Part shown: in pieces, positions 3,801-45,350 of the stretch
How positions within the stretch are numbered: position 1 is the first letter of the stretch
Layout: each line of letters opens with the position of its first letter
Origin: Escherichia coli
GTDB taxonomy: Bacteria > Pseudomonadota > Gammaproteobacteria > Enterobacterales > Enterobacteriaceae
Assembly: GCF_029227855.1 (NCBI RefSeq)
Contig: NZ_CP074356.1
Strand: one strand, 5' to 3'
Length of the DNA: 64,000 bases
Position numbers and translations under genes: made by a program
Notes under the pieces: generated by a model
The model's database searches: none
The model's input: only the letters and a program-made list of their open reading frames with translations
What the model was told of the DNA's origin: nothing

Positions 3801-5339
3801 ATGGCTTTTGCCTCATTAATTGAACGCCAGCGCATTCGCCTGCTGCTGGCGTTATTATTCGGTGCCTGCGGAACGCTGGCCTTCTCTCCTTACGACGTCT
3901 GGTCTGCGGCGATTATTTCGCTGATGGGGCTTCAGGCGCTGACCTTTAACCGCCGTCCACTCCAGTCTGCCGCTATTGGCTTTTGCTGGGGATTTGGCCT
4001 CTTTGGCAGCGGTATTAACTGGGTCTATGTCAGCATCGCGACTTTTGGCGGAATGCCTGGCCCGGTTAACATCTTCCTGGTGGTACTGCTGGCGGCGTAT
4101 TTGTCGCTGTATACCGGATTATTTGCTGGCGTGCTGTCGCGTCTGTGGCCGAAAACCACCTGGCTGCGCGTGGCTATTGCCGCCCCTGCTCTCTGGCAAG
4201 TGACCGAGTTTCTGCGCGGTTGGGTGCTGACTGGTTTCCCGTGGTTACAGTTCGGCTATAGCCAGATTGATGGCCCGTTAAAAGGGCTGGCACCGATAAT
4301 GGGCGTGGAAGCCATTAACTTCCTGCTAATGATGGTTAGCGGCCTGCTGGCACTGGCGTTGGTCAAACGCAACTGGCGTCCGATGGTGGTGGCCGTCGTG
4401 CTGTTCGCCCTTCCCTTCCCGCTGCGTTACATCCAGTGGTTTACCCCGCAACCGGAGAAAACCATTCAGGTTTCGATGGTTCAGGGCGATATTCCGCAAT
4501 CGCTGAAGTGGGACGAAAGCCAGCTTCTTAATACGCTGAAAATTTATTACAACGCGACGGCACCGCTGATGGGCAAATCGTCGCTGATTATCTGGCCGGA
4601 GTCGGCGATAACCGATCTGGAAATTAATCAGCAACCGTTCCTCAAAGCACTGGACGGTGAGTTGCGCGATAAAGGTAGCTCGCTGGTCACCGGGATTGTC
4701 GACGCGCGTCTCAATAAGCAGAACCGCTACGATACCTACAACACCATCATCACGCTGGGGAAAGGTGCGCCGTACAGCTACGAATCAGCCGATCGCTATA
4801 ACAAAAACCATCTGGTGCCGTTTGGCGAGTTTGTCCCGCTGGAGTCGATTCTGCGTCCGTTAGCGCCGTTCTTTGATCTGCCGATGTCGTCGTTCAGCCG
4901 TGGGCCATATATCCAGCCGCTGCTGTCGGTAAACGGTATTGAGCTTACTGCGGCTATTTGCTACGAGATCATTCTTGGCGAGCAAGTGCGTGATAACTTC
5001 CGCCCGGATACCGACTACCTGCTGACTATCTCCAACGATGCGTGGTTTGGTAAATCTATTGGTCCATGGCAACACTTCCAGATGGCGCGAATGCGTGCGC
5101 TGGAGTTGGCGCGCCCGCTACTGCGCAGCACCAATAACGGCATTACGGCGGTGATTGGCCCGCAGGGTGAGATTCAGGCGATGATCCCGCAATTCACCCG
5201 CGAAGTATTAACCACTAACGTGACGCCGACTACCGGACTCACACCGTACGCACGTACCGGCAACTGGCCGCTGTGGGTACTGACGGCATTGTTTGGTTTT
5301 GCTGCTGTGCTGATGAGCCTGCGTCAACGACGTAAATAA
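3801..5339 (+). CDS. lnt: Apolipoprotein N-acyltransferase Lnt
   Basis: 512 aa, N-terminal multi-TM region plus C-terminal CN-hydrolase domain (catalytic Cys in AICYEI). Confidence 0.95.
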
Positions 5340-41537: not shown

Positions 41538-42246
41538 GTGCACAGAAAACCCCCAGCTAGGCTGGGGGTTCCGGAAAGCTTTCAGCTTTGAGCCTGTTAT
41601 TAAAACCCCTTTTGATTTGTTAAAACACCTTGCGGTCTGGCAACTGCAAGTGTCAAACAAGAAATCAAAAGGGGGTCCCAATGGGGAACGAAAAGAGCTT
41701 AGCGCACACCCGATGGAACTGTAAATATCACATAGTTTTTGCGCCAAAATACCGAAGACAGGTGTTCTACAGAGAGAAGCGTAGAGCAATAGGCAGTATT
41801 TTGAGAAAGCTGTGTGAGTGGAAAAGCGTACGGATTCTGGAAGCTGAATGCTGTGCAGATCATATCCATATGCTTGTGGAGATCCCGCCTAAAATGAGCG
41901 TATCCGGGTTTATGGGATATCTGAAAGGGAAAAGCAGTCTGATGCTTTACGAGCAGTTTGGTGATTTGAAATTCAAATACAGGAACAGGGAGTTCTGGTG
42001 CAGAGGGTACTACGTCGATACAGTGGGTAAGAACACGGCGAAGATACAGGATTACACAAAGCACCAGCTTGAAGAGGATAAAATGGGAGAGCAGTTATCG
42101 ATTCCCTATCCGGGCAGCCCGTTTACGGGCCGTAAGTAACGAAGTTGGATGCAAATGTCAGATCGTGTGCGCCTGTTAGGGCGCGGCTGGTAAGAGAGCC
42201 TTATAGGCGCATTTGAAAAACCTCCGGCTATGCCGGAGGATATTTA
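41538..42246 (+). mobile_element. IS200-family insertion sequence (IS200/IS605 family), boundaries approximate
   Basis: Single Y1 HUH transposase ORF with left-end hairpin (41549..41569), 69-nt stem sequestering the tnpA RBS (41606..41674) and right-end hairpin (42221..42239); about 709 bp, no terminal inverted repeats. Confidence 0.6.
41681..42139 (+). CDS. tnpA: IS200 transposase TnpA (HUH single-strand transposase)
   Basis: 152 aa; HuH motif (DHIHMLV) and C-terminal Tyr region; aaaggggg RBS. Confidence 0.93.
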   Translation: MGNEKSLAHTRWNCKYHIVFAPKYRRQVFYREKRRAIGSILRKLCEWKSVRILEAECCADHIHMLVEIPPKMSVSGFMGYLKGKSSLMLYEQFGDLKFKYRNREFWCRGYYVDTVGKNTAKIQDYTKHQLEEDKMGEQLSIPYPGSPFTGRK

Positions 42247-42299
42247 TTTTTGGGTATGTTTATCTGCGACACTCGCAGTACCGACGACATGGAGTAAAA

Positions 42300-42710
42300 A
42301 TGTCCAGACCAACTATCATCATTAACGACCTGGATGCCGAACGCATCGATATTCTGCTGGAGCAACCCGCCTATGCTGGTTTGCCAATCGCCGACGCGTT
42401 AAACGCAGAGTTGGATCGCGCCCAAATGTGTTCGCCAGAAGAGATGCCACACGACGTGGTGACAATGAACAGCCGGGTTAAATTCCGCAATCTTAGCGAT
42501 GGCGAAGTGCGTGTGCGCACGCTGGTGTATCCGGCAAAAATGACCGACAGCAATACTCAGCTTTCCGTTATGGCTCCGGTAGGTGCCGCACTGCTGGGGC
42601 TGCGCGTTGGCGATTCCATTCACTGGGAACTTCCGGGCGGCGTTGCAACCCACCTTGAAGTGCTGGAACTCGAATACCAGCCAGAAGCTGCTGGCGACTA
42701 CCTGCTTTAA
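42300..42710 (+). CDS. rnk: Regulator of nucleoside diphosphate kinase Rnk (GreA/GreB-like)
   Basis: 136 aa from [12 protein letters not shown]; ggag RBS. Confidence 0.93.
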
Positions 42711-42743
42711 TCCCATCTGCACAAGCGATAACTCGCTTTGCCC

Positions 42744-42770
42744 AGAGGATGCACTCGCATCCTCTTTTCG
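42744..42770 (+). terminator. Intrinsic terminator after rnk
   Basis: agaggatgc-actc-gcatcctct followed by tttcgc. Confidence 0.7.
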
Positions 42771-42852
42771 CTCAAATATCAACCAGATTTATCATTTTGC
42801 TCTTAAGCGCAGCATTCTAATCTGAACTGGTTATTCATCTGCGGAACCTCAT

Positions 42853-42942
42853 ATGAGCGAAGCTCTCGGTATCACTGCATTTTATATATTCATAGCCGCG
42901 ATTATTGTTGCTGCAGTGCTATACCTTGAACAACGCTGGTAG
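42853..42942 (+). CDS. Candidate 29-aa hydrophobic small ORF (MSEALGITAFYIFIAAIIVAAVLYLEQRW)
   Basis: ATG-to-TAG ORF below the 60-aa track threshold; single predicted TM helix; weak RBS; no independent support. Confidence 0.25.
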   Translation: MSEALGITAFYIFIAAIIVAAVLYLEQRW

Positions 42943-43065
42943 CGCCTGGTTTTATTTATTTTCCAGCTCAATAGCAAATTCAGATCAAATCAGCCTCGCA
43001 AATCATAGATTCATAACCAATAATGTGCTGTTATGTATACATGCAAAAACAAGGAGAGAATGCTT

Positions 43066-43494
43066 ATGTACAAGACAATCATCATGCCAGTGGATGTTTT
43101 CGAAATGGAATTGAGCGACAAAGCTGTTCGCCACGCTGAATTCCTCGCCCAGGATGACGGAGTTATTCATCTACTTCACGTACTACCCGGGTCAGCCAGC
43201 CTGAGCCTGCACCGTTTTGCCGCTGATGTGCGTCGTTTTGAAGAGCATCTGCAACATGAAGCAGAAGAACGTCTGCAAACGATGGTCAGCCACTTCACCA
43301 TCGATCCTTCCCGCATTAAGCAACATGTCCGTTTTGGTAGCGTGCGGGATGAAGTCAATGAGTTGGCAGAAGAACTGGGGGCTGATGTTGTAGTTATCGG
43401 TTCGCGCAACCCTTCGATTTCGACCCATCTGTTAGGTTCTAACGCCTCGAGCGTGATCCGCCACGCCAATCTGCCGGTGCTGGTTGTGCGTTAA
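43066..43494 (+). CDS. uspG: Universal stress protein UspG
   Basis: 142 aa from [10 protein letters not shown]; aaggagag RBS. Confidence 0.93.
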
Positions 43495-45180: not shown

Positions 45181-45350
45181 GTTTATCTCCTGGGCTTTAA
45201 ACATCATCATGCAAGCGGCCTCTGCGGCTACCTGGATGCAGCTTGCATCATGGTGCGGGGAAGAAAATCGGGTGCCGCAGCACCCGAAGAATTAGGTGAA
45301 TTTCCGAAGTATTTCGCGCCGGAGTTGGTAGCGCGAAAGACGAAGGAAAT

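Follow-up and report, generated by a model that had tools for sequence, protein, structure and literature searches.

The short rnk-uspG interval of a ybdR-less Escherichia coli haplotype and its small membrane protein gene, yldA

In Escherichia coli K-12 strain MG1655 the gene ybdR (b0608) lies between uspG and rnk, and the question raised by the sequence analysed here (the window, a 64,000-nucleotide stretch of E. coli contig NZ_CP074356.1) is what occupies this site when ybdR is missing. A preliminary description of the window had noted that about 355 bp separate the two genes, had placed the rnk terminator and a possible 29-residue membrane peptide in this spacer, and had given the location of ybdR in K-12 as between uspG and rnk; our analysis bore out the spacing, the terminator and the K-12 location. 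The rnk gene (regulator of nucleoside diphosphate kinase) covers 42300..42710 (+), stop codon included, as given by the ORF list, a 100% tblastn match and the RefSeq annotation of the identical locus L002, and uspG (universal stress protein G) covers 43066..43494 (+) by the ORF list, the RefSeq annotation and tblastn. The spacer is thus exactly 42711..43065 (355 bp), from the rnk stop ending at 42710 to the uspG start at 43066, and a tblastn search with K-12 YbdR as query found no homolog in this locus. RNA folding placed the intrinsic terminator of rnk at 42744..42768 (+), with a 9-bp stem (AGAGGATGC/GCATCCTCT), an ACTC loop and a T-run (fold energy −15.5 kcal/mol, z = −4.3); an Rfam search of the spacer returned no RNA family, its sole match being a chance snoRNA below threshold. 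Beyond the terminator is an ATG-initiated ORF at 42853..42942 (+), whose 29-residue product is MSEALGITAFYIFIAAIIVAAVLYLEQRW, with a Shine-Dalgarno-like GGAA 7 nt 5' of its start (42843..42846, +), and the Shine-Dalgarno sequence of uspG, AAGGAGAG, was read at 43051..43058 (+). We hold with high confidence that this interval represents the rnk-uspG region of a ybdR-less haplotype, made up of the rnk terminator, the small gene yldA with its SD-like site and the putative uspG promoter and leader, and that it is one of two diverged cassettes found at this site.

Judged by its family matches and its position, the 29-codon ORF is yldA, a known gene orthologous to K-12 b4734. In all listed genomes that have this spacer, RefSeq (PGAP) names the product "small membrane protein YldA", and the window protein matched the NCBIfam equivalog model NF041476 over residues 1–29 of 29 with 59.0 bits (E = 3.2e-16; cut-off 45), K-12 YldA scoring 57.9 bits against the same model. 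The sole Pfam match, to PF23689 ("YldA-like"), covered residues 1–27 of 29 with 22.9 bits (E = 9e-5), which is below the gathering cut-off of 27. Our own YldA HMM gave a single match in the six-frame translation of the window, at 62.4 bits, and the window gene carries what we call the class-A allele. The 29-residue protein has one hydrophobic helix (best 19-residue Kyte-Doolittle stretch at residues 5–23, mean 2.67), and every column that is invariant among YldA homologs is present in it, including E3 and A21-V22-x-x-L25-E26. Its position agrees with this assignment: the ORF is on the same strand as rnk and just beyond the terminator, ~140 nt after the rnk stop (142 nt in the window, 137 nt in K-12), and the same position is occupied in 33 other enterobacterial loci. 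In MG1655, yldA (643330..643419) lies between rnk (b0610) and ybdR, with which it converges, the two stops being 3 nt apart. Since K-12 carries both yldA and ybdR, the view that the window ORF stands in for ybdR fails, and the preliminary wording that placed the ORF "where K-12 carries ybdR" was misleading. The window and K-12 proteins agree in position, strand, length (29 aa), M-x-E start, single TM helix, AVLYLE-x-x-x tail, PGAP name and passing NF041476 score; however, only 15 of 29 residues (52%) are identical, the window allele class being one shared by E. albertii and some Citrobacter, and yldA is followed by uspG in the window, whereas in K-12 it is followed by the convergent ybdR. A study that used chromosomal SPA tags and immunoblots detected 36 small proteins, K-12 YldA being one of them, and saw the tagged protein in rich-medium cultures (VanOrsdel 2018, PMC6001520); this detection belongs to the K-12 allele, with its 52% identity to the window protein. 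Later papers mention yldA in lists only, among transcripts raised by NaF (PMC10100675) and among overlapping "excludon" pairs, where the K-12 yldA and ybdR transcripts converge (PMC12288877).

A 29-codon ORF is by itself not beyond chance, because the ORF list holds dozens of ORFs of 20–40 residues near this locus, and the preliminary description had left it undecided whether this one was a genuine membrane protein or noise. We mapped rnk, ybdR, uspG and ahpF in the rnk neighbourhoods of 80 enterobacterial species representatives, and found a 29-residue hydrophobic ORF at the equivalent site in 35 of these loci, belonging to about ten genera (Escherichia, Citrobacter, Enterobacter, Lelliottia, Leclercia, Pseudenterobacter, Kosakonia, Phytobacter and others). 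This check of its conservation gave a length of exactly 29 codons in all 36 distinct homologous DNA sequences, the position of the stop being fixed and the stop codon itself variable. The mean pairwise difference per site was 0.27, 0.20 and 0.49 at codon positions 1, 2 and 3, respectively, and the pooled pN/pS was 0.39. The homologs share a short acidic N-terminus (M-x-E), one hydrophobic helix and a conserved polar C-terminus (LYLE-Q/R/N-R/H-W), with the consensus MxExLxITLxFxIxxAIIVxAVLYLERHW and six invariant residues (M1, E3, A21, V22, L25 and E26). All aligned homologs keep a G-rich, SD-like GG(G)A at −10 to −7, the remainder of the upstream spacer being unalignable between allele classes. 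Because of the constant length, the third-position excess and the kept SD-like GGA, the ORF stands above chance, and from this pattern of substitution we conclude that yldA is a real gene under purifying selection at the protein level. Of the two options in the preliminary description it is therefore the membrane protein that stood, by its conservation, by the family models and by detection of the K-12 ortholog, and noise that did not.

It is correspondingly very improbable that the ORF is noise, or that it is a cis-acting upstream ORF or leader peptide that tunes uspG instead of encoding a functional protein. The gene is very short, and in the window only 123 nt, with no recognisable terminator, separate it from uspG, which follows on the same strand, an arrangement that a leader might have; however, what is conserved in YldA is the amino-acid sequence, beyond the reading frame alone, and yldA is equally conserved in loci where ybdR intervenes and 1.4 kb with an opposite-strand gene precedes uspG. 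Against noise there is also the accumulation of the K-12 protein to detectable levels (PMC6001520). The gene is absent from the sampled Salmonella (arizonae and diarizonae), the C. freundii complex, Kluyvera, most Kosakonia, and E. cloacae and E. hormaechei; several lineages have lost it through deletion, and it is therefore dispensable. Two of these losses are partial, the E. hormaechei locus (L040) keeping the SD and the E. cloacae locus (L033) the last codons and 3' end of the gene (L033 and L040, about 4406..4555). A consensus promoter and terminator scan of 42600..43150 found no promoter for yldA, and the same scan also missed the evident rnk terminator; -10-like hexamers picked out by eye near yldA lack the key A at position 2.

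The absence of ybdR from the window had been put down either to a deletion scar or to an ancestral state. The alignment to K-12 that had been proposed as a check showed flanks of 98–99% identity and, between them, sequence that is essentially unalignable except for yldA. By blastn, identity is 99.4% up to 42771, just beyond the terminator, and similarity resumes at 43048 at ~98%, with 9 differences in 43048..43101 and about 1.5% thereafter; the stretch between the 42771 and 43048 breakpoints is 276 bp long in the window and 1,611 bp, ybdR included, in K-12. The haplotype-specific cassette, diverged from the K-12 type beyond the reach of megablast, accordingly spans 42772..43101, and its right edge falls within uspG, whose first 12 codons show 5 differences from K-12, all of them synonymous as read from the sequence. 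Inside the cassette the only significant similarity between the window and K-12 is the 3' half of yldA (z = 9.1), the spacers on both sides giving z values of about 0.

A recent deletion, by which a K-12-like ancestor would have lost ybdR and been left with a short spacer and a chance ORF, is a slightly poorer explanation even than noise or a leader peptide, and we consider it most unlikely. It would accord with the presence of ybdR at this site in K-12 and two thirds of E. coli, and true ybdR deletion scars do exist in the Enterobacter-like loci L056 (1057..1225) and L057 (4641..4796), where the 3' end of ybdR, its upstream "ttttgagatttatcctggcg" motif or both survive. In the window, however, no ybdR remnant was found (best local score 15, against a shuffle maximum of 16), nor any similarity to the K-12 ybdR-uspG spacer above that of shuffles; the sequence on both sides of yldA is random with respect to K-12 despite the near-identical flanks; and the ORF is also present in K-12, hence it is no by-product of a deletion. 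Furthermore, three Escherichia outside E. coli, E. albertii among them, are collinear with the window through rnk-yldA-uspG (89.6%, 93.0% and 94.3% identity), the E. albertii YldA protein being identical to that of the window. Because there is no ybdR remnant, the spacers flanking yldA are random relative to K-12 and the outgroups are collinear, the evidence favours an old and common alternative haplotype over a recent deletion, and of the two preliminary explanations it is the one closer to an ancestral state that gained ground. By parsimony the ybdR-less cassette would be the older state in Escherichia, a reading that rests on three outgroup species, E. fergusonii not being among them. As a separate observation, the small deletions at this locus in the Enterobacter-like genomes L056, L057, L033 and L040 are independent of each other.

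Both haplotypes are frequent in the species. Among 5,426 complete E. coli genomes, 3,600 have the K-12-type cassette, about 1,816 have the window-type cassette (98–100% identity) and about 10 have neither. Strains with the window type include IAI39, O127:H6, PCN033 and ZH193, which we take to belong to phylogroups F, B2, D and B2, respectively; those with the K-12 type include K-12 itself, O157:H7 and O145. In E. coli HS-02 (H190, NZ_CP172818.1 630519..630679) the match extended over only 53% of the class-A spacer, at 93% identity, and the annotation shows no gene at this site, which suggests that the HS-02 locus is a third, rarer variant.

The two cassettes are not confined to E. coli. When the window is compared with Citrobacter sp. 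R56, the pre-yldA spacer, yldA and the 70 nt upstream of uspG are 67%, 77% and 74% identical, and the values against K-12 for the same three segments are 55%, 63% and 63%; the body of uspG, in contrast, is 98.6% identical to K-12 and 76% to R56. The 70 nt upstream of uspG in the window are 62.8% identical to K-12 and 94.3% to E. albertii, and for the corresponding K-12 region the best matches are C. sedlakii and Citrobacter HRGM66 (73–74%). Other Escherichia species and some Citrobacter also have the window cassette, and cassettes resembling that of K-12, with its other yldA allele, ybdR and other sequence upstream of uspG, occur in C. sedlakii and Enterobacter. Across the family, loci with both yldA and ybdR, with either one alone and with neither are all found. 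The two classes of yldA allele are associated with distinct uspG promoters and differ in whether ybdR accompanies them, and the divergence between them exceeds that between Escherichia and Citrobacter. We considered whether the K-12 cassette is a recent import from one of the sampled genera and rejected this, since K-12 ybdR is ~80% identical at the DNA level to ybdR of Salmonella and C. sedlakii, as are its flanking genes. The simplest reading of these comparisons would be two alternative cassettes of long standing, transferred by homologous recombination within their conserved flanks.

Phylogroup-linked polymorphisms of gene content between E. coli core genes are known, for example in the mutS-rpoS region. 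The rnk-uspG site resembles polymorphisms of this type in having deeply diverged alternative cassettes of differing gene content between near-identical flanks, and in having sharp boundaries consistent with replacement by homologous recombination; it differs from them in being small (0.3 kb versus 1.6 kb), in involving one enzyme gene (ybdR), and in that both cassette types also occur in other genera. We also observed that the uspG promoter and leader fall inside the variable cassette (window 42772..43101, versus L001 4472..~6136), and that the two haplotypes have unrelated sequence upstream of uspG (63% identity over 70 nt) before a gene that is 98.6% identical; regulation of uspG could differ between the haplotypes.

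The left border of the cassette lies just beyond the rnk terminator, the stem of which is itself strongly conserved. The arms GAGGATGC..GCATCCTC are invariant in 33 aligned yldA-bearing spacers, and in nearly all 44 yldA-less loci they can be recognised despite single-base or compensatory changes; L025 has no terminator. Over about 20 genera (window 42744..42765; L003-L082) the stem GAGGATGC/GCATCCTC is nearly invariant and the loop free to vary, and Trabulsiella, Pluralibacter and Yokenella have a compensatory version of the stem, GAGGATGT/ACATCCTC. In this alignment, the sequence conservation of the rnk terminator stem is unusually strong for a terminator. A second ORF of 23 codons (42749..42820, +; MHSHPLFAQISTRFIILLLSAAF) has its start within the hairpin of the terminator; altered versions of it occur in E. 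albertii and Escherichia sp. MOD1-EC7003 but are absent from L004 and the other genera, and the ORF is probably due to chance. Upstream, a 707-bp IS200C-family element (41541..42247, with tnpA at 41681..42139) lies between rna and rnk, where K-12 has no element, and ends 52 bp before the rnk start codon; it may separate rnk from its native promoter. Only one of the 5,426 complete genomes shares this insertion (JNEC-KY178, 100% identical over 12 kb), the other top matches covering 94% of the query. Downstream of the locus, K-12 has ~75 bp more than the window between ahpC and ahpF (window 45325..45330 versus L001 8359..8438).

As to what YldA does, the least probable proposal of all is that it is a type I toxin-like hydrophobic peptide restrained by antisense transcription, for although the protein is small, hydrophobic and single-helix, and its K-12 transcript converges with that of ybdR as an overlapping pair (PMC12288877), tagged K-12 YldA is detectable in growing rich-medium cultures (PMC6001520), the window haplotype has no convergent partner gene, the Rfam search found no antisense RNA family and the consensus scan no promoter-like site on either strand, and yldA is found as a single copy in the same gene order across genera, whereas toxin loci are typically repeated. 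A more useful comparison is with YoaI (b1788; NCBIfam NF041475), a PhoB-regulated small membrane protein of 34 residues that binds and stimulates EnvZ (Vellappan 2025, as summarised in PMC12648545); the YoaI study does not mention YldA. Against the YoaI model NF041475, the window YldA scored 30.0 bits and K-12 YldA 22.5, both below the cut-off of 45, and K-12 YoaI scored 22.4 bits on our own YldA HMM, a score reached by 0 of 20,000 full shuffles (maximum 16.6) and 0 of 20,000 core-only shuffles (maximum 20.4). The hhalign comparison of YldA with YoaI gave a probability of 91.8% (E = 7e-7). The two proteins align without gaps over 27 residues, with the N-terminal Glu and the C-terminal (L)-E-R in register, and both are single-helix peptides of inner-membrane type (predicted for YldA); they differ in genomic locus and in five extra N-terminal residues of YoaI. 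YldA is thus probably a distant relative of YoaI and not a member of the YoaI family, and the similarity, over ~27 mostly hydrophobic residues, could be convergence.

These likenesses allow a tentative proposal for function. YldA would insert into the inner membrane and there bind and modulate a larger membrane protein, as do most small membrane proteins characterised in bacteria; we regard this reading, drawn by analogy, as possible, with the odds somewhat against it. That the modulated partner would be a histidine kinase specifically is a good deal more doubtful, the lead being taken because the relative YoaI binds and stimulates EnvZ; EnvZ stimulation and PhoB-dependent transcription are features of YoaI, to which YldA is likened by sequence alone. 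With a similarly low expectation, we speculate that YldA and YoaI may form one unrecognised family of ~30-residue "E...TM...LER" membrane peptides by which sensor kinases or other envelope proteins are tuned, and that the two classes of yldA allele may be functionally distinct variants, maintained by selection or passed repeatedly between genera.

The discovery value of this locus is small, as yldA is already known (it is named, it is modelled in curated families, and its K-12 ortholog has been detected experimentally) and a third of sequenced E. coli have the ybdR-less arrangement. Constraint on yldA at the protein level across about ten genera is nevertheless something that a single immunoblot report had not established. 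The YldA alleles of E. coli are only 52% identical, and results obtained with K-12 may therefore not transfer to strains that carry the window allele, presumably including those of phylogroups B2, D and F. For the function of YldA itself, the similarity to YoaI provides a concrete, testable lead.
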